From positions 77,659 through 141,658 of the forward strand of contig JBEKRZ010000002.1 in the NCBI GenBank assembly GCA_049517435.1: 64,000 nucleotides of DNA, written 5' to 3'. The stretch's first letter is position 1. Each line of letters begins with the position of its first letter. This DNA comes from Smithella sp. (GTDB lineage: Bacteria > Desulfobacterota > Syntrophia > Syntrophales > Smithellaceae). Of this stretch, positions 4,784 through 64,000 are shown piece by piece. The notes below the pieces were generated by a model. The model had not been told where the DNA came from. It did not search any database and saw only the letters and a program-made list of their open reading frames with translations. A program made the translations under genes and the position numbers.

Positions 4784-4841
4784 GGAGCTTCTCCTTTCCC
4801 CCTCGGGATTAAAGTAAGTTAGACTCACCATAAAGTTTCCT

Positions 4842-4972
4842 GGCTTGCGGCGGCCTACTTTCCACTCCTTCCCAATGCCGGAGCATCAGTGGTTTGATGT
4901 GGATTTCGTTCCGCTTACAGTTGCGGGGCAGCGCCGGACTTTGACCGGCTTCCTTTATTGGCAGTCATCTAC
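4842..4972 (-). promoter_or_regulatory. cobalamin (B12) riboswitch
   Basis: The minus strand reads ...CAATAAAGGAAGCCGGTCAAAGTCCGGCGCTGCCCCGCAACTGTAAGCGG...AAACCACTGATGCTCCGGCATTGGGAAGGAGTGG.... This matches the conserved core (AAnAGGGAA-CCGGTnAAAnTCCGG-GCTGCCCCGCAACTGTAAG) and the CCACTG...GGGAAGG elements. It lies in the 5' leader of the TonB-dependent receptor gene. Confidence 0.85.
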
Positions 4973-7912: not shown

Positions 7913-8067
7913 TTATATTGGAATTCATTTAGCTTCAAATTTATTTTGGATATTAGATTATTGTACCTGTCCCATTGATTTCTAACGCCCCGGTTCAGCG
8001 GCGCGGTGCGCTGTTTTGCTATGTCCGATGCAGATAATCTTTCGGCTCTTTCCTTATCATTTTCTCC

Positions 8068-8556
8068 TCATGGCTTTACGATGATTCGGCCAATTCCCAG
8101 CAAGCCGATCTTGTCGTATCGCTCTTCAGCGTTCTGTTGTTTTCCAGAGACCGTATCCAAATCCTTGAACATTTTACGCAATGCAACCTCAAGGTCGTCA
8201 ATGAAGTTCTCTAAATTGATAACTATCTTACTGTCGACTTTCTGCCCATGTAATGCGGGTTTTGCATCGACAAAAATGTATGAACCCCCTTCGGAATAGT
8301 TATGAACCACTTTGCATCGCAAGTCTTTGTATAGTTTTTCAGGGTCGTACAGACTTGGAAGATAATCCTTCACGATCTGCTTGTAATCCTTACCTGTGGT
8401 CTCTCGTCCTGCGATGAAACCTGCCATATAGTCAATGAAACAACTGGCAAGAATGAATGCACCCATCTTCGACTGACCAGCGGAGGCGCGCTTTATATCG
8501 AGAAACGCCATGTCATATAGAGCGAATTTAATGTGGTTAAGCTTTGTCTCAATCAT
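8068..8556 (-). CDS. hypothetical protein, 162 aa, with a possible HEPN-like Rx4H motif
   Basis: The ORF is clean and has no overlapping alternative. It contains LYKDLRCKVVHNYS (R-x4-H) after a helical N-terminal half. I do not recognise a family. It is flanked by an attC-like remnant (7980-8024) and the TIR element (8680-8800). Confidence 0.5.
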   Translation of the reverse strand: MIETKLNHIKFALYDMAFLDIKRASAGQSKMGAFILASCFIDYMAGFIAGRETTGKDYKQIVKDYLPSLYDPEKLYKDLRCKVVHNYSEGGSYIFVDAKPALHGQKVDSKIVINLENFIDDLEVALRKMFKDLDTVSGKQQNAEERYDKIGLLGIGRIIVKP

Positions 8557-8805: not shown

Positions 8806-10233
8806 TTATTTCAGTTCCATACAAAACTTATCAATCTTCTCCGGCGGAGCTATGGGATAGTTGCCATTAAAGCAGGCCAGGCAAAAACAATCTTTGGTCA
8901 ATCCGGTTGCCTTGATCATGCCTTCTACTGTCAGGTAGTGTAAAGAATCCAAACCGATGAATTCGGCAATAGCTTTTTCGTTTTCTTTTTTTGCGGCGAT
9001 CAGTTCTCCCTTGGACGAAAAGTCAATGCCATAGGGACAGGGATAAATTGTCGGCGGACAACTGATGACCATATGAATTTCTTTCATTCCGATGCCGCGC
9101 AGATTTTGCACACGATTACGGCTGGTGGTGCCCCGGATAATTGAATCTTCCACAATCATCACTTTCTTGCCGGCTAATAACTCCCTCACCGGATTTAATT
9201 TTACTCTTACACCAAAATCGCGCATCAGCTGGGTCGGTTGGATAAAGGTTCTGCCGATGTAGTGATTACGAATCATGCCCATCTCAAAAGTAATGCCGCT
9301 TTCTTCCGCGTAACCCAGAGCGGCGTAAACGCCGGAGTCGGGAAAAGGCATGACGATGTCCACATCCGGACAGTATTCACGCGCCAGTTCATGACCCAGT
9401 CTTTTTCGGTACATATAGACATTCTGGCCGAAAATCTGGCTGTCGGGACGGGCAAAATAAATCAGCTCAAAAATGCAGTGACAATGTTTGATGGGCGGAA
9501 AAGGTTTGAGGCTCTTATAGCCTTTCGAATCGATGATGATGATTTCACCGGGTTCGACATCGCGAATATACGTAGCTCCAACCAGATCAAAGGCGCAGGT
9601 CTCGGAGGCGACAACCCAACTGCCGTTTAGTTTTCCCAGCGCGAGCGGTCTAAACCCTCGCGGATCACGGGCGGCAATAATTTTATCCCTGGTCAGCATG
9701 ATGAAGCTGTAAGCGCCTTCCACGCGGGAGAGGGCGGCAGTCAATGCCTTTTCCAAACCGTTTTTCAAATGCGGCGCCATGAGATGAATGATGACTTCGC
9801 TGTCCATCGTCGATTGAAAAATCGAACCGCTGCTTTCCAGTTCTTCACGCAATTTCTGCGCATTGATAATATTTCCGTTATGTCCCAGGGCATAATACTC
9901 TTCGCCAAAATGAACCAAAAAGGGCTGGGCATTGGAAAGAGTGGAAGAACCTGTTGTGGAATAACGGACATGCCCGATAGCCAATTTACCGGGGAGTTTT
10001 TGCAGAATTGCTTCTTTGAATACCTCGGAAACCAGCCCCATTCCCTTGTGCTCCGAAACGTTACAACCGTCGGAGCTGACAATGCCGGCGGATTCTTGAC
10101 CGCGATGCTGTAAGGCAAAAAGGCCGAAAAAGGTTATTCTGGCCGCGTCTTCGTGGCCGTATATGGCAAAAATGCCGCATTCTTCACGCGGATAGCCGGA
10201 TTCATCTGATTTTTCTTCGAATAAAGATGACAT
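8806..10233 (-). CDS. purF: amidophosphoribosyltransferase
   Basis: The 475-aa product has the N-terminal nucleophile context ECGIFAIYGH, the motifs HVRYSTTG and NGNIINA, the PRTase motif VMIVEDSIIRGTT, and a C-terminal Cys cluster. Confidence 0.95.
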   Translation of the reverse strand: MSSLFEEKSDESGYPREECGIFAIYGHEDAARITFFGLFALQHRGQESAGIVSSDGCNVSEHKGMGLVSEVFKEAILQKLPGKLAIGHVRYSTTGSSTLSNAQPFLVHFGEEYYALGHNGNIINAQKLREELESSGSIFQSTMDSEVIIHLMAPHLKNGLEKALTAALSRVEGAYSFIMLTRDKIIAARDPRGFRPLALGKLNGSWVVASETCAFDLVGATYIRDVEPGEIIIIDSKGYKSLKPFPPIKHCHCIFELIYFARPDSQIFGQNVYMYRKRLGHELAREYCPDVDIVMPFPDSGVYAALGYAEESGITFEMGMIRNHYIGRTFIQPTQLMRDFGVRVKLNPVRELLAGKKVMIVEDSIIRGTTSRNRVQNLRGIGMKEIHMVISCPPTIYPCPYGIDFSSKGELIAAKKENEKAIAEFIGLDSLHYLTVEGMIKATGLTKDCFCLACFNGNYPIAPPEKIDKFCMELK

Positions 10234-16635: not shown

Positions 16636-18060
16636 TTAGATATCGTAATAAAGCATGAATTCATAAGGGTGCGGCCGTAAGTCCATCGCCTCAACCTCAT
16701 TCACCATCTTATAATCAATCCATGTATCAATGACATCTTGGGTGAATACATCTCCCTTAAGCAGGAATGCATGATCCTTTTTCAGGGCATTAAGAGCTTC
16801 ACGCAGAGAACCGGGCGTCTTCAATACTTTTTTTGCATCTTCCGGTGGAAGATCATAGATGTTCTTATCTAAAGGTTTACCTGGATCGATCTTATTCTGG
16901 ATGCCGTCCACCGCTGCCATCATAATCGCTGAAAATGCCAGGTAAGGATTACATGCCGGATCAGGACAGCGGAATTCCAGGCGTTTTGACTTAGGTGACG
17001 TGCTGTACATGGGTATACGCACTGCCGCGCTACGATTGCGCTTTGAATATGCCAAGTTGACCGGGGCTTCATAACCTGGTACCAAGCGTTTATAACTGTT
17101 GGTTGTCGGACTTGTCAACGCCAACAACGCGGGAGCATGTTTAAGGATTCCTCCGATAGCATACATGGCCATCTGAGAAAGCCCGGCATATCCGTCGCCG
17201 GCAAATAAATTTTTGTCTTTCTTCCATAAAGATATATGGACATGCATACCGCTACCATTATCGCCGAATAGCGGTTTAGGCATAAATGTCAATGTTTTAT
17301 TAAACTTTTTGGCAGTGTTCTTGAGTATATATTTATATTTCAGAAGATTATCCGCCATTTCTACCAGGGGTGAAAACTTCATATCAATCTCTGCCTGTCC
17401 GGCGGTAGCTACTTCATGATGCTGAGCCTCAACTTCAATTCCAATGCTTTCAAGTGTTAAAGCCATTTCACTGCGCAAGTCCATCTGGCTGTCGGTAGGC
17501 GGTACAGGAAAATACCCTTCTTTATGGCGAACTTTATAGCCCAGATTTGGATTTTCAACCCTACCACTATTCCAGATGCCTTCCACGCTGTCAATATGAT
17601 AATAGCCTTCATTAGTTTTCTGATCATAACGTATATCATCGAAGATAAAGAATTCTGCCTCTGGCCCAAAATATGCCGTATCGGCCAAGCCAAGCTTCTT
17701 AAGATAATTTTCTGCTTTTCTCGCTATGTTGCGGGGGTCTCTGGTGTAATCGGCACCGGTAATAGGATCCTGAATGTTGCATATCATAACCAAGGTCTTA
17801 ACGGCAGTAAAGGGGTCAATAAATGCAGTGGAAGGCACCGGCATTATAAGCATATCAGACTCATTAATTGCCTGCCAGCCGCGAATTGATGAACCGTCAA
17901 ATCCCAATCCTTCGGTAAACACATTTTCATCAATCTGACTTATAGGATAGCTGCAATGCTGCCAAATTCCGGGGAAATCCATGAATCGCAGATCAACTAT
18001 CCTCACCCTTTCCTTCTTAATTAATTCAAGAACATCTTTTGGTGTTTTTATTTCAGCCAT
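16636..18060 (-). CDS. glnA: glutamine synthetase type I
   Basis: The 474-aa product contains [44 protein letters not shown] and the adenylylation-loop-like [10 protein letters not shown]. Confidence 0.97.
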
Positions 18061-18189
18061 GATACTTTATCTCCTTTATGCTAAAATTTGTTATTCAATA
18101 ATTATATCTCTATAAATATTTTATGCGCTGATATGCCGGATCAAAATTCTATAACCATATCTTTTACTATAAAAAGACACCAATTTAAT

Positions 18190-18205
18190 AGCAACAGCTA
18201 TGCCA
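18190..18205 (-). promoter_or_regulatory. sigma-54 (-24/-12) promoter for glnA
   Basis: The minus strand reads TTGGCATAGCTGTTGCT, i.e. TGGCAT-N5-TTGCT with exact GG/GC spacing. It lies about 130 nt upstream of the glnA ATG. Confidence 0.7.
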
Positions 18206-18618
18206 ATTCATCAAATACTTTATTTAAGTTTTACGAGGAAGATGTTATTCATCCACATTAAAGAAAGTCAATATCTTTAAAAATATATTATCGTGAAGTA
18301 TATATTTGGTTTTGCAAGGATAATATGGACGATCAGAAAAAACATCAATAATGTAAGCGGCAATAGCGTTGAATTTGTTAATAAAAAATAGGTAGAAAAA
18401 AGCTAAAAACCACTTGATTTTGATTAATTTTTATTATAAAATTTAAAAGTTAAATATAAAAAAGAACAAATATGTATTATGAATGCAGACAAAACAACAA
18501 TATTGTAACATCATGGTTATTAATAGTTCACGGATTCTTCTTCCATGACTTAATTTTCCATAAAATAATTCACTTTGTTGTTTCATTATAAGTTACTCTT
18601 TCATTTATAATTAGTCGT

Positions 18619-18634
18619 TGGCATTTATTTTGCT
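18619..18634 (+). promoter_or_regulatory. sigma-54 (-24/-12) promoter for the glutamate-synthase-like operon
   Basis: The plus strand reads TGGCATTTATTTTGCT, i.e. TGGCAT-N5-TTGCT. It lies about 80 nt upstream of the ATG at 18716. Confidence 0.7.
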
Positions 18635-18715
18635 GTGAAAGAACGTTTGCTCTATCGATACATAGAGTCTTTATGATTTATCATTACTACGGAACTACGG
18701 AAGAGATATACAAAA

Positions 18716-20560
18716 ATGAAGCTGGTAGAAGAATTTAAAAAAATCTCGGGCGATATAAAAATTATCGACAAAGAAGAAGAAAAAGAAATGTACAGCCATG
18801 ATATCGGCGATGTTCCTGCCATCATGACTAAAACATTTTTTAATATACAACCTGATTTTGTCGTCCAACCCCAAAGCGCCGAAGAGATAAAAAAAGTACT
18901 GGAATTTGCTAATGGGAAAAAAGTGCCGGTTATTCCCAGGGGCGCCGCATCATGGGGATTCGGGGGTGTAATTCCGGCAAACGCTGGAATAGTAATTGAT
19001 TTATCACCTTTCCGAAAAATCCTCAATCTCAACAAAGCCGAAAAAACCATAACTGTGGAAGCGGGAGCAAGATGGAGCGATATTGATATTCTAGCTAAAA
19101 AAGAAGGTTTATGCCTGATGACATATCCATCGAGCAAGTTTTCCACCGTCGCCGGCTGGATTGCCACAGGCGGTTACGGCATCAACAGTTTCCGCTACGG
19201 ACACTTATCCAACCAGATTGTGTCCATGACAGTTATAACTCCTTCCGGTGAATCTAAGAAGATTACTCCTAATGATCCTGACTTTGCGTACTTCGTTTCC
19301 ACGGAAGGCGAGTTTGGAATAATTGTTGAAGTAACCCTTAAATTACGTGATGTTCCTCAAGCATCCTATTCGCATCTATTCTATTTTGAAAGTGACAAAG
19401 ACGCTTTTCTGTTCATTGAAAAATTCATCAAATTAGGAAAAGCGAATGAACTGAAGCCTAATGTAATACGTTTCCTTGATGAAAATAACTTAAATGACAT
19501 AAATGAAATCATGCATGCGAAGGTATTTAAAAAGAGTGCCGGAGTGCTGATGGAATTCAGCAGCTCTGAAGATGATAAGAAGTTTTCAACGGTTATAGAG
19601 CAAAGTGATTATGTCGAAGAAGCGCCTCGCTATGTTGCCAGCTATTTATGGAATGAGCGGCTTTTCGGCATGAAGACAAAGCGCCTCGGGCCAACCATTC
19701 TGGCAAGTGAAATTATCATTCCAATAAAAACTGCAGCAGCCTTCACTGAAAAAGCAAAAAAACTCGGGGAATATTACGGTGCGGAAATATGCATCGATTC
19801 CTATATTATAGATGAACATAAAGCACTCATCATGGCCACTTTCCTTTGCGATTCCAGGAAGAAAAAATATTTTATCAGTATGCCGCTCGTTTCCATGCTC
19901 ACGAAAGCTGCCGTTGGATTTGGCGCGGAACCCTATGGGCTCGGCCTCTGGAATGCCGCATTTATTAATTCCCTCTTCACCCGCGCAAAAAAACTTGACC
20001 TGTTGGCTTATAAGCAGCGTGTCGATCCTAACAACATTCTGAATCCGGGTAAATTCTTCAGTATTAATTCAAATGTAATAACTTCCCTTTTATTCAATCC
20101 GGTCTTTTTCAATGCATCTATCGGCATTGTTTCCTTTCTGTCACCGGTTATTGGAAAAGCCGTGACTCTGCTCTTTGGAAAGAATGAAAAGGTAGATACT
20201 CTTGATTATGAGCTGACTACTCATGCCTGTGCCAAATGCGGAAACTGCCTTGCGGTTTGTCCGGCATATCTTGTCACCGGAAATGAAGCAGTGACCGCAA
20301 AGGGAAAGATTGCTCTGGCTAAAAAGCTTATTGAGGGAAGACGAGTAACGAAAGAAGAATCTGAAAATGCGTTTATGTGCATGCATTGCAAAGCCTGTGA
20401 AGAAATATGTCAAACCAATCTCGAACTGATGACGCTTTGGGATTCGCTGGAAAAAAGAATAGAAGCTAACATTGGCCGGCCCGAAGAAAAGATTAATGAA
20501 TTTCTTAAGAAGGTTGATGACAGCAAAGATTACTGGGAAATGGTGGATCGGAATAATTGA
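18716..20560 (+). CDS. FAD-linked oxidoreductase (PCMH/GlcD-type FAD-binding domain) fused to a C-terminal 2x[4Fe-4S] ferredoxin-like domain
   Basis: The N-terminal part shows the FAD_binding_4 pattern (VVQPQSAEEIKKVLEFANGKKVPVIPRGAASWGFGG...AGWIATGGYG). The C-terminal part has two Cys motifs, CAKCGNCLAVCP and CMHCKACEEICQ. Confidence 0.75.
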   Translation: MKLVEEFKKISGDIKIIDKEEEKEMYSHDIGDVPAIMTKTFFNIQPDFVVQPQSAEEIKKVLEFANGKKVPVIPRGAASWGFGGVIPANAGIVIDLSPFRKILNLNKAEKTITVEAGARWSDIDILAKKEGLCLMTYPSSKFSTVAGWIATGGYGINSFRYGHLSNQIVSMTVITPSGESKKITPNDPDFAYFVSTEGEFGIIVEVTLKLRDVPQASYSHLFYFESDKDAFLFIEKFIKLGKANELKPNVIRFLDENNLNDINEIMHAKVFKKSAGVLMEFSSSEDDKKFSTVIEQSDYVEEAPRYVASYLWNERLFGMKTKRLGPTILASEIIIPIKTAAAFTEKAKKLGEYYGAEICIDSYIIDEHKALIMATFLCDSRKKKYFISMPLVSMLTKAAVGFGAEPYGLGLWNAAFINSLFTRAKKLDLLAYKQRVDPNNILNPGKFFSINSNVITSLLFNPVFFNASIGIVSFLSPVIGKAVTLLFGKNEKVDTLDYELTTHACAKCGNCLAVCPAYLVTGNEAVTAKGKIALAKKLIEGRRVTKEESENAFMCMHCKACEEICQTNLELMTLWDSLEKRIEANIGRPEEKINEFLKKVDDSKDYWEMVDRNN

Positions 20561-27951: not shown

Positions 27952-29096
27952 ATGATTTCGAAAAGAGCGTCCAGATTCACATCTTTCATTGTCATGGATG
28001 TAATGGCGAAAGCCGAAGAGTTGGAGCGTAAAGGGGAACACGTTATCCATCTGGAAGTAGGCGATCCCGATTTCCCACACCCAAAGTTATAACGAAGGCG
28101 GCCAGCGACGCTTTGCACAATAACAAAACCCGCTATACCCACGCCTTAGATTTGTTGGAACTGCGTCAGGCTATATGTGATTTTTATTTTAAGGAATACA
28201 GTGTCAATATAACGCCAGATCAGGTGCTGGTCTCCACAGGCACTTCTCCCGCACTGTTATTCGCGATGCTCGCGATTTTAGATCATGGCAACGAAGTGAT
28301 TATCTCCAATCCGCGCTACCCCTGTTACCAGAACTTTATCCTCGCGACCGGAGGCAAGACTAAAGAGGTTAAAACTTACCCGGAAGAGGGATTTCAATAC
28401 CGTCCTGATGACATCAAAAAGAAGCTCTCGCCACGGACAAAGGCGATTCTGATTAACTCGCCTTCCAATCCCACAGGCATTGTCATGAGCAAAGACCAAT
28501 TACAGAACATTGCGCAATTTGATCGCCAGTATATTATCTCGGATGAAATTTATCAAGGCTTGGTCTATCAAGATCGGGCTCACTCTATTTTGGGATTCAC
28601 GGATAAGGCTTTTGTCATCAATGGTTTTTCTAAATTATACGCGATGACCGGCTGGCGCTTGGGTTACTGCATCTTCCCCAAACAGTTTTCAAAAGTTATG
28701 CAGAGAATTCATCAGAATTTTATGATTTCCGCTAACGGCTTTATTCAATGGGCGGGCATCGCCGCTCTTACCAAAGCTAAAAAAGATGTGGCCAAAATGA
28801 TAAGGATTTACAATGAACGCCGCCAATACATGCTGGCGCGCTTGAAAAACATGGGTTTTGTAATTCATGTCGAGCCGACTGGCGCGTTTTATGTGTTTGC
28901 CGATGCGCGGCGCTTTTGCACGGATTCTTACAAGGAAGCTTTTCGTATTACTGAAGAGATAAAGGTTGGAGTTACACCCGGCATGGATTTCGGTAGTGCA
29001 GGCGAAGGATTTTTACGTTTTTCTTACGCCAATTCGATAGAAAACATTAAAGAAGGCTTAAACCGGCTTGAGCGTTATCTTCGCAAATATGATTAA
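27952..29096 (+). pseudogene. class I/II (aspartate-type) aminotransferase interrupted by a 1-nt frameshift
   Basis: Frame 1 from the ATG at 27952 reads MISKRASRFTSFIVMDVMAKAEELERKGEHVIHLEVGDPDFPHPKL*. Another frame continues FPTPKVITKAASDALHNNKTRYTHA... to 29096. The two join into the canonical GDPDFPTP motif if one T is added to the T3 run at 28071-28073. The pyridoxal-phosphate Lys region SKLYAMTGWRLGY is present. Confidence 0.8.
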
Positions 29097-29317
29097 TGAA
29101 TTTTTTCATTCAGCTCAAACAATTGTCAATAATTAAAAATACTATCCAGAAACGTAAAATAGATGCCAACTAAAAAAAGCTATTAATGTTTGTACCCTTA
29201 AGTCTGCTGTTCTCATCATTACTACTCAATTATTTTTTTATAAGTGGTAAGTAGCATAAATATTCACCTCATCCGTTGTTAAGGCTGAAAAAGTGTAGTA
29301 TGCGTCGGAGAAGCAGG

Positions 29318-29731
29318 TTAAAATGGAACATCATCTACAGGAACGCTGCCATTATTGAAGCTTTCGGGCGAAGAGTCGGGAGATGATTCACTTGTTTTGT
29401 TCTGACCTTTAGAATCCAGCATTTGCATGTTGGAAGCTATAATTTCAGTAGTGTAGCGCTTAACGCCATCCTTATCTTCCCACGAACGGGTTTGAATCCG
29501 CCCTTCCACGAAAATAAGTTTGCCTTTAACAAGATAGTTGCCGCATATCTCGGCTAATTTTCCAAAAGTAACTATTCTATGCCACTCCGTTTTTTGAACT
29601 TTTTCTCCGTTTTTATCTTTCCATTGTTCGTCTGTGGCTAAATTAAAATTTGTGATCATTGTTCCATCGGGCGTATAACGAACTTCCGGATCTTTACCCA
29701 GCCTGCCAATCAATATTGCTTTATTTACCAT
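29318..29731 (-). CDS. ssb: single-stranded DNA-binding protein
   Basis: The product begins [23 protein letters not shown]...[11 protein letters not shown] and ends with the acidic tip DDVPF. The start was set at the internal ATG at 29731. Confidence 0.93.
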
Positions 29732-29917
29732 TTTACCCACCCCCTGTTGATAAATCTTTACTATAATACATAACATCATCATTTGTGGCAAACTAATTTT
29801 GTGTAGAAAAATTTAAAAAAAACATTATTTGCCCTATAACGTCATACAATCACAATCATGCTTGACTATTTGGCAAAAAAAATATATTCAAACAAGCTTT
29901 ATAAAAATGGAGAAATT

Positions 29918-31399
29918 ATGGAAGATAATGATCTTTTAAACATACGTCGAGAAAAAATCTTGGCCTTAAAAGAAGCCGGTGTTGATTTATATCCCAACGA
30001 TGTACAACCCCAAAATACAACAGCAGAAATATTTGCCCAGTTTGGCCATTCCGACGGTGAAGCTCTAGCGCAGATAACAAATAGGTTCTCCATCGCCGGG
30101 CGTTTAATGGCCGTACGTAATTTCGGTAAAGCTGCGTTTATCAAAATTCAAGATAATAAGGGCCAAATTCAAAGTTACATAGCCAAAAGTATTCTAAGTG
30201 ATGATGCTTATTTTATTTTTAAAAAACTAGATATCGGCGATATCATTTATGTTTCAGGGAAACTCTTTCGCACTAAGACAGGAGAATTGACTATTGAGGC
30301 GGAGAATTTGATCCTGCTTTCTAAATCCATACGTCCTCTGCCGGAAAAGTGGCATGGCCTTACTGATATCGAAACAAGATATCGCCAGAGATATCTTGAT
30401 TTGATTACAAGTCCCAAGGTTAAAGAAATTTTTTACCGGCGCAGCCGCATTATCCAGCTTATTCGGCAATTTATGGACAAGCATGATTTTTTGGAAGTGG
30501 AAACACCGATGATGCAGCCACGCGCAGGAGGAGCTATCGCCCGGCCTTTTAAAACTCATCATAACGCTCTGGATATGGATTTTTACCTGCGGATTGCTCC
30601 CGAACTTTATTTAAAACGGCTTGTTACCGGTGGCTTGGAGAGAATCTACGAAATTAATCGTAACTTTCGTAATGAAGGTATTTCTACTTTTCATAATCCC
30701 GAATTTACCATGATGGAATTTTACCAGGCGTACAGTACTTATGAAAAATTGATGACCTTTACTGAAGACCTGTTTGCCTTTGTCGCTACCAATATATTTG
30801 GCGGGTTAAGATTTAATTATCAGAATACGGAAATCGATTTGACCCCGCCTTGGCGGCGCATATCCGTAAAAGAAGCTCTCGTACAAATAGCAGGCATGGA
30901 ACCAGCCGAATTGGAAAATCAAAACCAATCTTTAGCCTTTGCTCGAAGGGCTGGCTGCAAGGTGAAAGAAACCGATCATTTAGGGAAAATTTTAATGGCC
31001 ATTTTCGATGAGGTTGTCGAAAAGAAACTTGTTCAGCCAACATTTGTGACCAATTATCCAGTGGTCATATCTCCCCTTTCCAGGAGGTCAAACACTGATG
31101 CAGACCTTACCGATCGCTTTGAACTGTATATTTACGGCAGGGAAATTGCCAACGCCTTTTCGGAGTTAAACGATCCTGCCGAGCAGAGAGAAAGATTTCT
31201 GCAGCAATTACAAGAAAGAGAAGCTGGTGATGACGAAGCTCACGAAATGGACGAAGATTACATTCGAACATTGGAATATGCTATGCCGCCTACAGCCGGT
31301 GAAGGTATCGGCATTGACCGCCTGGTTATGCTTTTTACCGACTCAGCTTCTATCAGAGATGTCATTTTGTTTCCGCTACTGAGAACTAAACAGGAATAA
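29918..31399 (+). CDS. lysS: lysine--tRNA ligase (class II)
   Basis: The OB-fold N-domain is followed by class II motifs (FLEVETPMMQ, YLRIAPELYLKRL, FRNEG, GEGIGIDRLVML). The start is the ATG at 29918, preceded by GGAG. Confidence 0.95.
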   Translation: MEDNDLLNIRREKILALKEAGVDLYPNDVQPQNTTAEIFAQFGHSDGEALAQITNRFSIAGRLMAVRNFGKAAFIKIQDNKGQIQSYIAKSILSDDAYFIFKKLDIGDIIYVSGKLFRTKTGELTIEAENLILLSKSIRPLPEKWHGLTDIETRYRQRYLDLITSPKVKEIFYRRSRIIQLIRQFMDKHDFLEVETPMMQPRAGGAIARPFKTHHNALDMDFYLRIAPELYLKRLVTGGLERIYEINRNFRNEGISTFHNPEFTMMEFYQAYSTYEKLMTFTEDLFAFVATNIFGGLRFNYQNTEIDLTPPWRRISVKEALVQIAGMEPAELENQNQSLAFARRAGCKVKETDHLGKILMAIFDEVVEKKLVQPTFVTNYPVVISPLSRRSNTDADLTDRFELYIYGREIANAFSELNDPAEQRERFLQQLQEREAGDDEAHEMDEDYIRTLEYAMPPTAGEGIGIDRLVMLFTDSASIRDVILFPLLRTKQE

Positions 31400-58412: not shown

Positions 58413-58666
58413 AAATCAAGCAATAGTTCGCGTTTTTCCTGCGAACGGCGGAACTAAGCGGTGACATGAACATGCAGAAAGCGAAGCTTCCAGTGCATGT
58501 GAAATGCCAACCGACTTCAGTGATTTGTTGGCGCCGCGCGGATCAGCGCGCAAGGCCTAATTATATTTATATTTATTAACTACAATATCAGAACTCATTT
58601 AAATTGTCAGACGCCAATAAGGAGCTCAAAAACGGTAGATTAGCTTTTTAGGCATCTCTAAATTTA

Positions 58667-59917
58667 TCAATTCGACTTCTCAGAAGTAAGGACATTAACG
58701 TCTCGTGACATAGTATCTATTAGTTTTTCAACTATTTCCCAATTCTTCATTGAATAATTTCCAAGCATACCCATAGTAACAGTATCCTTGAAAGTGGAAA
58801 AACTTAACTGTATAGCTGGTTGATTCTTTATAGATGTTAGCATGTACGCATCAATAATCTTATGACCGCTGAAACATAGTTTTTTATCGTCAATAATACC
58901 AAGGTTTGATATTGATATACCTAAAGATTGAATCTCTCTGGAAAGTATTCTATCAAACATATTTCGTGGGAGTAATTCAAATAATGAGTTCATGATTAAT
59001 ACATTCTTAATGCCAGGGAAGTGCGATTTTATTTTTCTCATATACTTACTTATTTCTTGAGATAAATCAAAAAAACTTTGGTTTTTATTGACTATTGTCA
59101 TACTTTCCATTGAAGAAAAATTACCGAATTGTGAAACAGGGTATTTGTTTATATATCTTCTTAGATCGAACATTATTTGTATCGTAACCCTGTCTATTTT
59201 TTCATGTTCCAGACAAAATATTGCGTGAAAGAAAAGTGTAAGAATAAAATCATTAATAGTAATCCCAGATTTTTTGCAAATACCTTTTATGATCTGGAAT
59301 TCTACTACATCGATCTTGAATAGTCCCAGTCGGGTTTCTATATCATCATTTTTATCGCTCAATATTTCTATTTTTGTTCTATTATATGTCTTCCTGAATA
59401 GAGAAAGAAACTTCTGTTTTGCTGATATATTTTTGAACAAGGTATTCATCCGACGATCCAGATTTATCTTGTCAATAGAATCATTTGAGTAGATTTTCGA
59501 CAACAAGTAGAGATACAATTTTAATCCAGAACCATCAAATACCATATGATTTACGGTAATAATAGCGACATCATTAGCATCTTGACATATTATTTGAACA
59601 AATATCTGTGGTCCATTATTTCCAGGTATTTTTTTCAGATACTCAACGATATTTTCCTTTGATATGTTATTAGTATTACGAACACAAAAGAAATCATCAT
59701 CTGTGTAATCACTCTCTTCCCAAAGCACTTTACTTCCTGTCTGCGAATACTTGCACCTAAGAACAGGGACATAGTCAAAGGAAATATTTACAGATTTTTT
59801 GAACCTATCTGTATCTATATGTTCCTTAAATATAATAATTCCCCTTACCTGATGATCGTTCACTACGTCCTGGAGTTTGATATATTCATCCAATAATTCT
59901 ACTGGATATTTATTCAT
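58667..59917 (-). CDS. cassette ORF: condensation/HxxxDG-type acyltransferase-like protein
   Basis: The 416-aa, very AT-rich ORF carries the motif ITVNHMVFDGSG, which resembles the HHxxxDG catalytic motif of the condensation/WS-DGAT/PapA5-type acyltransferase superfamily. No closer assignment is possible. Confidence 0.5.
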   Translation of the reverse strand: MNKYPVELLDEYIKLQDVVNDHQVRGIIIFKEHIDTDRFKKSVNISFDYVPVLRCKYSQTGSKVLWEESDYTDDDFFCVRNTNNISKENIVEYLKKIPGNNGPQIFVQIICQDANDVAIITVNHMVFDGSGLKLYLYLLSKIYSNDSIDKINLDRRMNTLFKNISAKQKFLSLFRKTYNRTKIEILSDKNDDIETRLGLFKIDVVEFQIIKGICKKSGITINDFILTLFFHAIFCLEHEKIDRVTIQIMFDLRRYINKYPVSQFGNFSSMESMTIVNKNQSFFDLSQEISKYMRKIKSHFPGIKNVLIMNSLFELLPRNMFDRILSREIQSLGISISNLGIIDDKKLCFSGHKIIDAYMLTSIKNQPAIQLSFSTFKDTVTMGMLGNYSMKNWEIVEKLIDTMSRDVNVLTSEKSN

Positions 59918-59936
59918 AACTTATTTCCTTTTGGAT

Positions 59937-59995
59937 GCCTAACGCCAGAACTGTGCGGCGCAGTTTTTTTCGTCCGCACCAGTGATAGGTTATGT
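59937..59995 (-). repeat. attC site of the hydrolase cassette
   Basis: The minus strand reads ACATAAC-ctatcactggtgcggacgaaaaaaactgcgccgcacagttctggc-GTTAGGC. The inner arms CTGTGCGG/CCGCAC(C)AG pair with one extra base. Confidence 0.75.
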
Positions 59996-60035
59996 AACTT
60001 CAATATGTTGATTTAATATCTTATATTTGTTTACA

Positions 60036-60923
60036 TTAAATGTTGATTTGCACAGCATGCTTAGAAATGGCGTCTACTATTTCTGCCCAAACCCCTTTTG
60101 GCATGTCATGTCCCATTCCATCAATTATCAATAATTTTGCTCCCGGTATTACTCGAGCTGTATCTTTTCCTCCTTCGACCGGTATCAGCGGATCATCAGC
60201 CCCATGAATTACAAGTGTTGGAACCTTAATAGATGAAAGCAACGGTCTTCGATCGCCATTGGCAATAAGAGCTATGTTTTGACGTGCCATTCCCTGTGGG
60301 TAGTATGAACGATCATAGCTCTTCTCTAGGAAAGTTCGAGCTCTCTTTTCCTCAAATGGAAATCCGGGACTCCAAATCTTCCGCCATACATTCATATTGT
60401 GTTCAATATATGCTTCGCGTTCCTCTGGTGCAGGCGCGAGAACAGCAGCTATTGTTTCCGGTTTCGCCTGCGGAAGATCAGGATTTCCTGTGGTCGACAT
60501 TATTGAAGTGAGACTCAGGACATGTTTTGGATGTCGATAGGAGATAACCTGGGCTATCATACCGCCCATTGAAGCGCCGCAAATATGTGCCTTCTCAATG
60601 CCTAAAGCATTAAGTAAACCAACGGCGTCATCCGCCATATCATCAAGAGAATATGCTGATTCCACAGGCTTACCTTCCATTGCAGCTTTGATTGCAGCCG
60701 GAAAGTCAGGAATTCCTGCTTCTTCAAATTTTGTCGAAAGACCTGCATCCCGGTTGTCAAACCGAATCACAAAGTAACCTTTTTTTGCTAATAACTCGCA
60801 GAATTCGACATCCCAAAAATAAATCTGAGCACCATTACCTGCAACTAATAATAATGCAGAGAATGAACTATCACCGAAAGTATCATATTCAATTTGGATT
60901 CCATTAGCTGTCACATTAGGCAT
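60036..60923 (-). CDS. cassette ORF: alpha/beta-fold hydrolase
   Basis: The 295-aa product has HG-type LLVAGNG, the nucleophile elbow GASMGG, and late Asp/His residues (HGADDPLIP, GMGHD). Confidence 0.85.
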   Translation of the reverse strand: MPNVTANGIQIEYDTFGDSSFSALLLVAGNGAQIYFWDVEFCELLAKKGYFVIRFDNRDAGLSTKFEEAGIPDFPAAIKAAMEGKPVESAYSLDDMADDAVGLLNALGIEKAHICGASMGGMIAQVISYRHPKHVLSLTSIMSTTGNPDLPQAKPETIAAVLAPAPEEREAYIEHNMNVWRKIWSPGFPFEEKRARTFLEKSYDRSYYPQGMARQNIALIANGDRRPLLSSIKVPTLVIHGADDPLIPVEGGKDTARVIPGAKLLIIDGMGHDMPKGVWAEIVDAISKHAVQINI

Positions 60924-60974
60924 TGCTTACACCTTTTCTAAGTTAATATCATGAATTACTATATTTATCTTGAC

Positions 60975-61042
60975 CCACAACTTTCGAGTTAATGTGCGGG
61001 ACCCGGCGTGCCGGGACACGTCCCTTGAGCGATGCGTTAGTT
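60975..61042 (-). repeat. divergent, GC-rich attC-like site of the DUF1353 cassette
   Basis: The minus strand reads AACTAAC-gcatcgctcaagggacgtgtcccggcacgccgggtcccgcacattaactcgaaa-GTTGTGG. It has internal GGGAC/GTCCC and CCGG/CCGG stems. The R boxes match the consensus poorly and pair only over AAC/GTT. Confidence 0.45.
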
Positions 61043-61043
61043 C

Positions 61044-61697
61044 TCACCGCCCCCACACCAAAGAGCTAATTCCTGACTTGACGGCAATTTCCTTATCAAG
61101 CGCCTTGCATGCTAGCCCGATCTGGTCGCTGTCCGCAGGAGTTTGTTCCGAGACATTTAATTCCCGAAGTGAAGTACGCAGATCAGGCCAAAGTGTGGTG
61201 GGCTTGAGCAAACCGGCATTAGGTGACATGTATCTTGACGGGATAACTCGCACCAGGCCATTCTGCTTGTCCGCCTTGTTGTCGGCCCACGCCTTATCTC
61301 CTGCCAGTTTCACCGCGACGTAGAAACGTGACTGCGTGGCTTGATCAACTCCAGCATCTCGCATAGTTTGGTAGATGATCTTGTCAGCTTCTTTCCGCTC
61401 ACACACCTGCCGCCAATAGAGGTAATCATGAAGAATCGCCGCGGATAGATATTTGCCGAAAGGTGGATACACAGCCCATATCTCACGGGGAGTGCTGGCC
61501 AGGTCGGTGACGAATCCACGCGGCACGACTATCGATACGTGTGTATGGTCGTCTAACTCAGCCACGAACTCAATGTCTTCCCAGACGATCCACTGTGTGC
61601 CATCCCCAAATGGACTTAGTAGCGGGGCGTGGGTAGGCGCAATTGTTGTACACGCGGAAAGACAGACAAACATGATAAACACAAAAAGTCGTTTCAT
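61044..61697 (-). CDS. cassette ORF: DUF1353-like lipoprotein
   Basis: It has a signal/lipobox MKRLFVFIMFVCLSAC and the core VVPRGFVTDLASTPREIWAVYPPFGKYLSAAILHDYLY, typical of DUF1353. GC is about 50%, higher than the neighbours. The start is the ATG at 61697, preceded by GAAGGAG. Confidence 0.7.
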   Translation of the reverse strand: MKRLFVFIMFVCLSACTTIAPTHAPLLSPFGDGTQWIVWEDIEFVAELDDHTHVSIVVPRGFVTDLASTPREIWAVYPPFGKYLSAAILHDYLYWRQVCERKEADKIIYQTMRDAGVDQATQSRFYVAVKLAGDKAWADNKADKQNGLVRVIPSRYMSPNAGLLKPTTLWPDLRTSLRELNVSEQTPADSDQIGLACKALDKEIAVKSGISSLVWGR

Positions 61698-61726
61698 ATG
61701 AGACTCCTTCAACTGTTACACATAAG

Positions 61727-61782
61727 ACTTAACGAAAAAATTAGCCGGAGCGTCGCGATCGACTGTATTGCCTTTGTTATGT
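61727..61782 (-). repeat. attC site of the thioesterase cassette
   Basis: The minus strand reads ACATAAC-aaaggcaatacagtcgatcgcgacgctccggctaattttttc-GTTAAGT. It is closely related to the attCs at 62259-62322 and 62786-62841. Confidence 0.8.
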
Positions 61783-61803
61783 AAAATTTTCGCCTGTGTT
61801 CCT

Positions 61804-62238
61804 TTATTCTCTATTCAAAACAAAAAGACTGGTAGATCCTTTTGCAACAATCTGTTTTTTTTCGTTAAGTATTGTTCCAGACATATAAATTAAACTACCA
61901 CCTTTATTTACTATCTCAGCGATAACTTGTACTTTTTCACCAACAAATGCTTTACCAATAAAGTCTATATTCAAGCTTGTCGTAATAGCTGAGACTTCAC
62001 TTCCCGGATGATTAGCTAATATTCCAAGAATATCACATAACATTGCTGCTCTAATACTGCCATGAAGAATACCAAGCGGATCTGCCATCTCCGGCCGCAC
62101 CTCAAATTCGCATTCCATTCTGTTATCATCTATAAAAATCAATTTTGGGTTAAGCCATGTCGTTACCGGGTTTATGATCTTGCCGCCCACTGATGATAAA
62201 TATTTGCCTTCAAAAGTTTTTAATTCAAGGATATCCAT
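61804..62238 (-). CDS. cassette ORF: PaaI/4HBT-type hotdog-fold thioesterase
   Basis: The 144-aa product has GILHGSIRAAMLCD (the GxxHGG-like motif) and a long central helix plus sheet pattern. Confidence 0.75.
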   Translation of the reverse strand: MDILELKTFEGKYLSSVGGKIINPVTTWLNPKLIFIDDNRMECEFEVRPEMADPLGILHGSIRAAMLCDILGILANHPGSEVSAITTSLNIDFIGKAFVGEKVQVIAEIVNKGGSLIYMSGTILNEKKQIVAKGSTSLFVLNRE

Positions 62239-62258
62239 CTTTTCCTTTCTCTTGATCT

Positions 62259-62322
62259 ACATAACGAAAAAATCAGCGGGAGGCGGGCGTAGCCTGCCTC
62301 CCGCTGTATTGCTTTGTTAGGT
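62259..62322 (-). repeat. attC site of the HEPN-like cassette
   Basis: The minus strand reads ACCTAAC-aaagcaatacagcgggaggcaggctacgcccgcctcccgctgattttttc-GTTATGT. It has a 10-bp GC stem, CAGCGGGAGG/CCTCCCGCTG. The upstream ORF's TAA stop lies inside ACC-TAA-C. Confidence 0.8.
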
Positions 62323-62772
62323 GTCTTTGTCTAAGTATCTTTCCCTCACAAATTTGGAAAGGATTTCCGCTGTCTGGAGTAATTCCTGCTGTCTGAAGGA
62401 AAATCCATTATTCTCGTGATGATATCTTGCATCTACAAAGTGACTGTTGTTACGTTCAAGAATATCGAGAATGTCTGGCTTGCGACTACTGAGTGAGGTC
62501 TGCACTTCCGCACTACATTTCTGGAATAGATCAAGAAGTTTGTGTCCAGCGTCGGCTTCGCCATTCTCCGCAAGGAGAATGTACTTGAGGAAAAGCTCGC
62601 ATGAGAATGATGCGCAGACTGTTCCCGGAACAGTCTGCATCTCGACACCTGCTTCAACCTTGCAACTGTTGAGACAACGGTCTGCAGCCTTGAGGAAGCT
62701 TCCGGCAAAATCAAAGGAGCCAAGATGGATAATCTTCCGGGGTTCGTTCTGTTTTTTGTTGTTATCAGTCAT
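62317..62772 (-). CDS. cassette ORF: HEPN-like helical protein
   Basis: In the 151-aa product, FSCELFLKYILLAENGEADAGHKLLDLFQK...HFVDARYHHEN follows the E-x-x-LK...H-x-L-x-x-L...RY layout of HEPN domains. No partner (MNT-like) gene lies in the same cassette. Confidence 0.45.
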   Translation of the reverse strand: MTDNNKKQNEPRKIIHLGSFDFAGSFLKAADRCLNSCKVEAGVEMQTVPGTVCASFSCELFLKYILLAENGEADAGHKLLDLFQKCSAEVQTSLSSRKPDILDILERNNSHFVDARYHHENNGFSFRQQELLQTAEILSKFVRERYLDKDT

Positions 62773-62785
62773 CTGTCTGATTGTC

Positions 62786-62841
62786 GCCTAACGAAAAAAT
62801 CAGCCGGAGCGTAGCGATCGGCTGGAGTGACTTTGTTAGGC
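62786..62841 (-). repeat. attC site of the nuclease-like cassette
   Basis: The minus strand reads GCCTAAC-aaagtcactccagccgatcgctacgctccggctgattttttc-GTTAGGC. The 7-bp R boxes are perfectly complementary, the inner stem is CAGCCG/CGGCTG, and the bulges are asymmetric. Confidence 0.85.
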
Positions 62842-62909
62842 TTTCATATAAAAGTGTTACGCATATACCCAGAACAATCTGTTACCTATCTTCCCGTTCG
62901 TTCATACGT

Positions 62910-63911
62910 CTATTCTTTATTTTTTGGTTTTGCCTTATTTATTTTAAATTCATTCAATTTTTTTGTTAACTCTTCCATTCTTTTTTTGTTTTTTCTTTCT
63001 CTGTTAAATGTTTTTTCGGTAGGCTCGACAATCTCATTCAAATATTCGAACAGTGATTTGAAACCTACGTTTCCCTTTGAAAAGTGAATTACCGCGAAAG
63101 CTCCCGGACAATAATTTTTGGCTATTACAGATAATACAAATCCGATATCTTCGTTAAATGACTTTAATTTCTTGTTCAAATAGTCTTTACTGTATTTATC
63201 AATAAACCGGTAAAATATTTCTATGTTATATTTTTCTAAATCTTTACCAATAGGAGATTTAAGAATTAAACATTCAGCTTCCGTTGATACATCGGATAAA
63301 TCATTTGATTGTTTAATTTGCTCAATTGTAACGTTTTCATTCAGTCTAAATAAATTTGCGGTGGTAACAATAATTGGAATATGATAAAAGATTATTTCTG
63401 ACGAACCAAGTAACCTTTCTATTTGATGTTCCATCCCATCCAATATTTTTTCAGCCATTGCATAGCTTAATTGATTCATTGCTTGAGAAATAGATTTAGG
63501 ATTTTGCCCTTCTGAATTGATCTCTATCCCTTTCCCACATAATGGTGCTAAAGGTTCATAATCCAATTCAAAGAATTTCTTTTTCTGGGTAAAATGGTCG
63601 TTTGGATTTATAAATGAATATGAATTAATTTCACTGATTCCACCATACGATTCAGGGGTAAAAACCCAATTGGTTGATTGGTCCCTGTATTTACATTCAA
63701 TCATTAGATCAAAGAAATGACCACCTTTAATAAATGAAGCGTCAATATCGTATGAAAACTCATTTACAATTTCACTCTCGTCTCTTCTCAAATAAGTGTA
63801 TTCATAATTTCCAACACAACCATATTTATCAAGCAATGTTTTAACTTCATATTCCAAGGGAATACTTGACTTAAGTAAAAAGTCTTTCCATTTGTTTAAT
63901 TTATTGCTCAT
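62910..63911 (-). CDS. cassette ORF: PD-(D/E)xK nuclease-like N-terminal domain plus an unknown C-terminal domain
   Basis: The 333-aa, AT-rich ORF has SYDIDASFIKGGHFFDLMIECKYRD, which gives a D...(D/E)xK arrangement (D-x13-E-C-K). The C-terminal ~200 aa are unassigned and end in a Lys-rich tail. Confidence 0.5.
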   Translation of the reverse strand: MSNKLNKWKDFLLKSSIPLEYEVKTLLDKYGCVGNYEYTYLRRDESEIVNEFSYDIDASFIKGGHFFDLMIECKYRDQSTNWVFTPESYGGISEINSYSFINPNDHFTQKKKFFELDYEPLAPLCGKGIEINSEGQNPKSISQAMNQLSYAMAEKILDGMEHQIERLLGSSEIIFYHIPIIVTTANLFRLNENVTIEQIKQSNDLSDVSTEAECLILKSPIGKDLEKYNIEIFYRFIDKYSKDYLNKKLKSFNEDIGFVLSVIAKNYCPGAFAVIHFSKGNVGFKSLFEYLNEIVEPTEKTFNRERKNKKRMEELTKKLNEFKINKAKPKNKE

Positions 63912-63923
63912 AGTATTTCATGT

Positions 63924-64000
63924 GTCCTAACAATTAATATACGTATTCGTTTATATACCGGTTTGAAACAAAATCTGTTTTTGGAATGATGTATTTCTAC
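63924..64000 (-). repeat. next attC (R' box GTTAGGA), incomplete or unresolved at the window edge
   Basis: The minus strand reads ...ttcaaaccggtatataaacgaatacgtatattaatt-GTTAGGA, 12 nt upstream of the ATG at 63911. The left boundary (R'' box) could not be placed with confidence. Confidence 0.4.

Follow-up and report, generated by a model that had tools for sequence, protein, structure and literature searches.

What is the function of a solitary gene that is carried as a one-gene cassette in a chromosomal integron array of Smithella sp. and whose relatives are annotated in every source, cluster look-ups included, as "hypothetical protein"? The gene lies near the right end of a 64,000-nucleotide (nt) stretch of contig JBEKRZ010000002.1 (GenBank assembly GCA_049517435.1, positions 77,659 to 141,658), hereafter called the window, to which all coordinates refer unless a locus is named. 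We postulate that it encodes a stand-alone, metal-dependent PD-(D/E)xK endonuclease that most likely restricts invading DNA, a reading that, taken as a whole, we hold with roughly even confidence. Its narrower component, that the gene is a member of a large unannotated family of the PD-(D/E)xK type, is very probably correct. The gene and the parts of it on which the argument turns are the following.

62910..63911, minus strand: nuclease-like gene; complete open reading frame (ORF) with an ATG start, 333 amino acids (aa) plus stop; member of an unannotated family of proteins of about 300 to 350 aa
63342..63911, minus strand: predicted PD-(D/E)xK-like nuclease module, residues 1 to 190, conserved (conservation, AlphaFold2 model, hhalign alignment to Hjc)
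63852..63854, minus strand: codon of E20, the Glu of helix 1; aligned with Hjc E9
63747..63749, minus strand: codon of D55, the Asp of strand 2; invariant in 113 diverse members; aligned with Hjc D33
63690..63698, minus strand: codons of E72-C73-K74, the (D/E)xK motif in strand 3; aligned with Hjc E46-V-K48
63471..63473, minus strand: codon of Q147, invariant, in the long helix 139 to 165
62913..63341, minus strand: variable C-terminal alpha/beta and helical region, residues 191 to 333, with the Lys-rich helix 299 to 333 at its end

The ORF is intact, and the 333-aa product contains the features for which a preliminary description had singled it out: the motifs YDIDAS (residues 54 to 59) and FDLMIECKYR (residues 67 to 76) and a Lys-rich C terminus, ERKNKKRMEELTKKLNEFKINKAKPKNKE. 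The gene is also, as described there, AT rich relative to the core genome, with a G+C content of 29.8%, compared to 43.0% in the chromosomal part of the window (positions 1 to 58400). A scan for promoters and terminators around the gene found sites no more numerous than in shuffled sequence.

Conservation across the family first points to a nuclease. In an alignment of 113 diverse members, reaching down to about 25% identity, D55, E72, W82, F84, Q147, and T183 are invariant, and E20, C73, K74, and others are conserved in at least 90% of the sequences. All 37 positions that carry at least 3.2 bits of information fall within residues 8 to 187. The full-length AlphaFold2 (AF2) model has a mean predicted local distance difference test score (pLDDT) of 94.0 and a predicted template modeling score (pTM) of 0.90, and the model of residues 1 to 195 has a pLDDT of 94.2; across the models, the pTM is 0.88 to 0.90. 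In the full-length model, helix 17 to 29 (carrying E20) is followed by strands 33 to 43, 49 to 62 (D55), 65 to 74 (E72 and K74), and 81 to 86, a variable insert (87 to 123), strand 124 to 137, helix 139 to 165 (Q147), and strand 174 to 183 (T183). This predicted alpha-beta-beta-beta...alpha-beta order is that of the PD-(D/E)xK superfamily, and D55 and E72/K74 are placed on the two arms of one hairpin.

Alignment of profiles put the same residues in register with those of archaeal Holliday-junction resolvases. The family profile was compared by hhalign with a Hjc/Hje profile made from four solved sequences (1gef, 2wcw, 1ob8, and 4tkd; P. furiosus Hjc is identical to 1gef). Over 54 columns, E20, D55, E72, and K74 aligned with Hjc E9, D33, E46, and K48 (score of 25.5, P = 0.0025), and an independently trimmed N-terminal profile gave nearly the same result (score of 24.6, P = 0.0018). 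All 42 controls scored lower: reversed profiles reached 11, and the maximum among 40 column-shuffled Hjc profiles was 16.5. A true distant pair, Hjc and an Mrr enzyme, scored 21.6, below the score of the family with Hjc; the comparison of the family with a single Mrr sequence was not significant.

Structure searches were less decisive. Foldseek returned nothing at an E value of ≤1e-3, either for the full model (against PDB and BFVD) or for the N-terminal domain model (against PDB). PD-(D/E)xK nucleases were nevertheless heavily overrepresented among the weak matches, which included three endonucleases of R2 retrotransposons (E value of 0.03 for the restriction-like endonuclease [RLE]), RecU (0.37), FokI (1.9), AddB, Cas4 SSO0001 (0.6 to 1), and phage proteins of the PD-(D/E)xK, Vsr/DUF559, DUF1064, and endonuclease I types. 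The predicted fold is a very divergent variant, which structure search alone does not place. A RecB/Cas4-type nuclease was considered and rejected: the family has only two conserved cysteines (C73 and C125) and thus no four-Cys Fe-S set, and its motif Q147-L-S-Y150 is spaced unlike QhxxY.

Since the catalytic tetrad can be aligned, is nearly invariant, and sits in a predicted topology that fits, we regard the PD-(D/E)xK assignment as well supported and likely to be right, in agreement with the preliminary description. The structural check proposed there gave a divided answer, with the expected topology and alignable catalytic residues on one side and a Foldseek search without a significant match on the other. 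The active site would consist of E20 from helix 1, D55 from strand 2, and E72-x-K74 from strand 3, a tetrad shared with Hjc-type nucleases. Q147, T183, and K127/E130 (the last two in most members) probably contribute to it, Q147 as a possible additional active-site residue. To judge from conservation and the model, a core of about 190 residues would carry out metal-dependent cleavage of nucleic acids.

What, then, does the rest of the protein do? It had initially been divided into a nuclease of about 100 aa and an unknown domain of about 230 aa; this division has to be moved. The conserved module extends over about 190 aa and includes an elaboration of about 50 residues after strand 3 (residues 87 to 123 of which are variable), leaving a variable part of about 140 aa. 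Residues 191 to 333 carry a mean information of 1.1 to 1.3 bits, compared to 1.9 in the core, and contain no invariant polar residue among the 113 members. Distant family members cease to align at about residue 240, and the Lys-rich helix 299 to 333 is occupied in fewer than half of the family sequences; the Lys-rich tail appears from the alignment to be a local peculiarity and not a conserved feature.

The observation that the part beyond the nuclease matches nothing recognizable does hold for residues 191 to 333: the full-length Foldseek search gave no significant match, and hence none for this region either, and hhalign of the C-terminal half against Hjc or Mrr found nothing. A degenerate second nuclease domain was also considered and rejected, as the N- and C-terminal halves scored 8.7 against each other. 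The proposal that this region is a novel sensor or effector domain was not supported, because it is the least conserved part of the protein and forms a single rigid body with the core in the model, where a pTM of 0.90 points to rigid packing of the one on the other. The C-terminal ~140 residues most likely serve in substrate binding or specificity, or in oligomerization. By analogy, a fast-evolving appendage on a conserved catalytic core would resemble the specificity elements of restriction enzymes.

The family is sizeable and has escaped annotation. The 333-aa protein matched no sequence model in Pfam, NCBIfam, PADLOC, or PDB even at an E value of ≤10, and neither the profiles nor the 113 members gave a consistent family in PDB, Pfam, or PHROGs. 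When the 113 members were scanned singly against Pfam and PHROGs, one proved to have an N-terminal HTH_19 fusion, and isolated weak matches to TnsA-like N, EcoP15I_C, and TIR_3 appeared. A word-indexed search retrieved 193 related proteins. An exhaustive search of 1.84 billion cluster representatives found 569 clusters (50% identity) at an E value of ≤1e-3, 360 of them at ≤1e-10, whereas a profile search of a 5.8-billion-protein database returned the family itself alone, all unnamed. Nearly all members are 300 to 350 aa long and align end to end or over residues 1 to 240.

Named genomes with close relatives are mostly Bacteroidota (Pontibacter, Niastella, Kordia, Pedobacter, Mucilaginibacter, Salegentibacter, and others); further carriers are Desulfobacterota metagenome-assembled genomes (MAGs), Geothrix terrae (Acidobacteriota), Balneola, and an Elusimicrobia MAG. 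Among 185,579 species representatives, patterns for the close family matched 25. The low G+C content of the gene and its Bacteroidota-rich relatives indicate that Smithella acquired it horizontally. Searches of 50,697 phage records and 2.9 million viral contigs found no member of the family, and we found a single plasmid copy, in Leptospira (30% identity), among hypothetical genes. Two copies are split, at loci L014 and L104 (L numbers designate the loci compared); the one in L014 (10001 to 11004), a delta-proteobacterial MAG, is 85% identical to the Smithella gene and divided into ORFs of 114 and 220 aa, and the one in L104 is likewise metagenomic. These splits suggest decay into pseudogenes, or assembly errors.

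Six cassettes occupy the right end of the window, and the gene is carried by the first of them. The elements that delimit its cassette are listed below.

62786..62841, minus strand: attC site of the nuclease-like cassette, GCCTAAC...GTTAGGC, 56 nt (R''/R' pattern, folding, sequence family)
63925..63931, minus strand: putative 5' cassette junction, GTTAGGA core (TCCTAAC on the plus strand), 14 nt before the ATG
63932..63942, minus strand: GTATATTAATT, 11 nt conserved together with the gene in three unrelated contexts (nucleotide homology)

The preliminary description had placed the gene alone in a cassette with a near-perfect attC site, and this is borne out by the 56-nt site and its setting in an array. 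The 7-bp R'' and R' boxes are perfectly complementary; the pattern occurs once in the window and in none of 100 shuffles. As single-stranded DNA, the site forms a terminal 7-bp stem (z = -2.5). The next attC site (62259 to 62322) belongs to the same sequence family (TAACAAAG...TTTTTTCGTTA) and has the stronger fold (z = -5.5). In the direction of the gene, the sites follow the ORF in the order R''-L''...L'-R', as is canonical for cassettes. The nuclease-like cassette would putatively span positions ~62792 to 63930. We found no attC-like hairpin upstream of the gene.

The 5' boundary has one peculiarity. DNA homology to other copies begins sharply 11 nt upstream of the GTTAGG core, with GTATATTAATT, and stops at the stop codon, in three unrelated contexts: the Smithella window, L045 (a contig whose copy is 87% identical; positions ~300 to 330), and L014 (~9960 to 9985). 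A homology that starts 11 nt beyond the presumed junction conflicts with the junction expected of the integrase IntI, at G|TT. The 11 nt may represent a promoter element of the -10 kind that travels with the gene, or the recipient sites may be similar.

Elsewhere, the gene travels alone. We compared 27 loci and later 92 in which the gene was called, and found no conserved neighbor gene in either set, except where the same genomes had been sampled repeatedly. The gene is a self-contained unit without a dedicated partner. Our own attC scanners were dropped, being either too strict (one of five sites found) or burdened with a background of about one match per kb; cassettes were called instead by reading the flanks and testing whether a flank recurs in the locus. 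At least five arrays whose attC families are unrelated to one another (those of the window, L005, L028, L090, and L117) carry the gene as a cassette of its own. The gene is the second cassette after a divergent tyrosine recombinase in L005, where the attC repeats are 130 nt long (z = -10.7); in L028 (Geothrix terrae), 120-nt repeats lie on both sides of it, and eleven copies occur in the locus; in L090, its stop codon lies inside the R'' box. Single attC-like hairpins were seen in several Bacteroidota loci. The gene thus moves horizontally as a one-gene unit, partly as an integron cassette, among Bacteroidota, Desulfobacterota, Acidobacteriota, and others.

In L045, the stop codon is directly followed by TCGTTGCGCTCCGGCTGATTTTTTCGTTATGCC (L045 1328 to 1383), the right half of the attC family seen in the window; the left attC half is missing, and a Type IV restriction gene with Mrr_N and Mrr_cat domains follows (1384 to 2253). 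By its sequence, L045 reads as a related array with the same attC family and a different cassette order, possibly containing a fused two-gene cassette. Neighbors at other loci include DRT UG10 (L021), a PtuA/GajA-like ATPase (L020), an NB-ARC/TPR STAND protein (L023), a DEAD/MZB giant helicase (L097), and genes for PDC-S60-like, TIR, SAVED-TIR, HEPN/DUF6036, and HEPN/MNT proteins, as well as integrases and insertion sequence (IS) elements. In L067 (6266 to 9780), a pair consisting of an AAA+ ATPase (nSTAND3-like match) and a subtilase (Peptidase_S8) lies directly downstream of the family member and looks like a conflict-system module. The possibility raised at the outset that homologs occur mainly in conserved housekeeping contexts was also examined, and contexts are not conserved across the 92 loci.

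Restriction of invading DNA is the role that best fits these data, because of the neighboring genes and because defense genes are documented in integron cassettes (bioRxiv 10.1101/2024.07.02.601719; see also 10.64898/2026.03.17.712381). The phage-defense cassettes reported there include the single-gene cassette Brc142, described as a putative dimeric restriction endonuclease (bioRxiv 10.1101/2024.07.02.601719). An anti-phage role for the Smithella gene is plausible on such circumstantial grounds. There is no cognate methyltransferase in the window cassette and no conserved one in the 92 loci, yet the gene is tolerated in hosts of several phyla, so the enzyme must spare ordinary host DNA. It would likely do so by recognizing a foreign feature, for instance modified bases, as Type IV enzymes do, or branched intermediates of replication or recombination, in the manner of Hjc and RecU; alternatively, the nuclease may become active only upon infection. 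Pfam scans of the protein and its relatives detected no known modified-base reader domain (SRA, EVE/ASCH/YTH, Mrr_N, or DUF262). We speculate further that the family is an unrecognized single-protein anti-phage system, a solitary Hjc-like nuclease with neither methyltransferase nor partner that has spread between phyla as an integron cassette and tells self from foreign by its fast-evolving C-terminal region (e.g., by sensing modified bases or branched phage replication intermediates). We advance this extended proposal tentatively and think it less probable than not.

Several points weigh against a restriction nuclease. All of the evidence consists of sequences and predicted models, and the way in which self DNA would be spared is something we infer outright. 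The PADLOC check suggested in the preliminary description was run and gave no match (PADLOC-DB v2, 0 families at an E value of ≤10), and Pfam, NCBIfam, PHROG, and PDB sequences likewise yielded none. No structural match is significant (best Foldseek E value of 0.03, TM score of ≤0.25), the hhalign probability of the family with Hjc is only 12 to 15%, and hhalign with the FokI cleavage domain (a single sequence) produced no motif alignment. By a strict repeat criterion, obvious homogeneous attC arrays are present in only about 5 to 7 of the 62 loci of at least 4 kb. Defense-gene neighbors occur in a sizeable minority of loci, a tally that has no background rate beside it, and many homologs stand as lone insertions between housekeeping genes, where no defense gene is near.

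These lone insertions lend some weight to an alternative hypothesis, that the protein is a structure-specific repair or recombination nuclease (a Hjc/RecU-like resolvase or a flap or fork nuclease) that works for the host or a mobile element and has no role in defense. Several lone copies lie among housekeeping genes, e.g., beside mraZ/dcw in Balneola and between serA and tyrS; Holliday-junction resolvases are the only significant remote similarity of the family, and RecU is among its top Foldseek matches. We nevertheless consider this explanation unlikely, in view of a distribution that is sporadic and horizontally transferred (25 of the 185,579 species representatives), a gene of 29.8% G+C in a 43% genome that is apparently pseudogenized in L014 and L104, and its carriage in cassette arrays and defense islands in contexts that are not conserved. 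At about 330 aa, the protein is also far larger than Hjc or RecU. That the conserved fold is used only for nucleic acid binding or as a scaffold, without enzymatic activity, is very improbable. Inactive PD-(D/E)xK domains are known to exist, and a protein with no significant structural match could be one of them; inactive derivatives, however, lose their catalytic residues, whereas E20, D55, E72, and K74 are kept family-wide to 25% identity while the rest of the sequence drifts.

Two further hypotheses keep the nuclease activity and change its purpose, and both seem improbable to us. According to one, the protein is an accessory or alternative nuclease subunit of a Type IIG/ISP-like restriction-modification (R-M) system, acting with a methyltransferase-specificity protein encoded just upstream. 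At L022, L119, and L120, a Type ISP/IIG-like gene with methyltransferase and target recognition domains does lie at exactly position -1 on the same strand, separated from the nuclease gene by 2, 100, and 39 nt, respectively, even though the family members involved share only about 28% identity and the R-M proteins 24 to 43%; in L022, moreover, a copy of the 3' end of the R-M gene lies on either side of the nuclease gene. This arrangement is a minority pattern, found in 3 of the 53 loci with more than 1.5 kb of upstream sequence, and no methyltransferase accompanies the window copy or the five clean cassette copies. In L022, the R-M protein aligns end to end with a 1,024-residue Type IIG model and may be self-sufficient. 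According to the other, the nuclease is selfish or toxic and persists in arrays because cells die when it is lost or expressed; it could be an addiction module, an effector of abortive infection whose regulator is unlinked, or a factor in competition between bacteria. In favor of this reading, toxin genes abound in integron arrays, a HEPN cassette lies next door, and the catalytic residues are invariant; set against this, no antitoxin-like small ORF is conserved beside the gene in 92 loci, a Pfam scan detected no secretion signal or toxin-delivery domain, and several lineages keep the gene stably on its own.

Two details of the R-M loci are recorded here in their own right. The copies of the R-M 3' end in L022 (9880 to 9973 and 11012 to 11105) are 86% identical, as if the gene had been inserted by recombination between R-M alleles. 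The nuclease genes of L119 and L120 are 88% identical, while the proteins of the adjoining R-M genes (L119 56 to 2527 and L120 914 to 4426) share only 43% identity.

How does a stand-alone restriction-type nuclease of this kind compare to known systems? The four Hjc/Hje enzymes, which are minimal PD-(D/E)xK nucleases, show the same E...D...E-x-K order with similar spacing, in register, and the same order of core elements. Hjc, however, is a housekeeping homodimer of about 120 to 145 aa, whereas the present family is about 330 aa long, sporadic, and horizontally mobile, with an insertion of about 50 residues after strand 3 and a variable C-terminal extension of about 140 residues. The similarity is at the limit of detection, and as judged from the sequences, the family does not belong to the Hjc family. 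Mrr-type Type IV enzymes (Mrr_cat, PF04471) are likewise stand-alone PD-(D/E)xK nucleases without a methyltransferase that occur in defense islands, and in L045 the cassette that follows the 87%-identical homolog holds an Mrr gene; unlike them, the family does not match Mrr_cat by sequence, and neither Mrr_N nor any other known modified-base reader was found in it.

The closest parallel in genetic logic is Brc142, compared here by description only, which is also a restriction-endonuclease-like gene in a single-gene integron cassette. Brc142 is found in class 1-type mobile integrons of Gammaproteobacteria, whereas Desulfobacterota, Acidobacteriota, and Bacteroidota carry the present gene in chromosomal arrays. 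The best Foldseek matches of the N-terminal model, R2 RLE (9dou, 9nl2, and 8iby), FokI (1fok), and RecU (1zp7), are all PD-(D/E)xK proteins, and at E values of 0.03 to 1.9 and TM scores of ≤0.25, the likeness is one of the fold core only. In Type II R-M systems, a cognate methyltransferase adjoins the nuclease, which was not found for this family except for the R-M gene at position -1 in three loci.

If both the nuclease and the defense readings are true, the gene would be a compact immunity module (1 kb, one gene) unseen by current annotation and defense-finder resources, occurring in anaerobes and Bacteroidota, in which integron cargo is almost unexplored. It would be a new, sizeable, unannotated family in a known superfamily, in a genetic setting already known for defense genes, and not a new kind of system; solitary PD-(D/E)xK nucleases and defense genes in integron cassettes are both documented, and such a module is conceptually expected. 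The gene also provides a concrete example of a cassette that moves between integrons of different phyla, with at least five unrelated attC families carrying it. Whatever its function, a Pfam/DUF entry for the family is warranted.

The remainder of the array consists of the following features.

58440..62841, minus strand: rest of the integrase-less cassette array (ORF scan, attC-like sites)
62317-62772, minus strand: HEPN cassette ORF, 151 aa, without an adjacent MNT or antitoxin gene
61804-62238, minus strand: 4HBT thioesterase cassette ORF
61044-61712, minus strand: DUF1353 cassette ORF
60036-60923, minus strand: alpha/beta hydrolase cassette ORF
58667-59917, minus strand: acyltransferase-like cassette ORF, 416 aa, with weak Condensation and WS/DGAT C-terminal matches, 30.8% G+C
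62259-62322; 61727-61782 (degenerate); ~60975-61042 (doubtful); 59937-59995: attC-like sites of the array

In total, six co-oriented minus-strand ORFs are separated by attC-like sites, three of which belong to one sequence family. The site at 61727 to 61782 has kept the family sequence and lost the fold (z = +0.6), and the one at ~60975 to 61042 is doubtful, with poorly complementary cores (z = -0.4); these degenerate sites suggest decaying, immobilized cassettes. The G+C contents of the six ORFs lie between 29.8 and 51.7%, in keeping with a cargo of mixed origin.

The region beyond the right end was seen through L001, a 206-kb JGI contig that carries the same protein and runs past the window edge. 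Because neither the window nor the 10 kb to the right of it was found to contain an integron integrase, we regard the array as CALIN-like, i.e., an attC array without an integrase. A tblastn search with three tyrosine recombinases from related loci likewise had no match in the window or in L001. Where the integrase would be expected, L001 has a divergent 536-aa PIF1-type helicase with a C-terminal WYL domain (L001 8212 to 9822, minus strand), followed outward by a tRNA-Gly(CCC) gene (8001 to 8075, minus strand) and rimP-nusA-infB beyond. The helicase was rejected as a partner of the nuclease-like gene because it is divergent, belongs to a cluster of 91 members at 90% identity found on many contigs, and is missing from all other loci.

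Two features lie farther to the left in the window. A cobalamin riboswitch (Rfam RF00174, 87 bits) at 4833 to 4955 on the minus strand precedes a 700-aa ORF (2729 to 4831). The G+C content dips locally at 18001 to 19000 (30%) and 29001 to 30000 (35%), in a chromosomal part that otherwise ranges from 41 to 50%.

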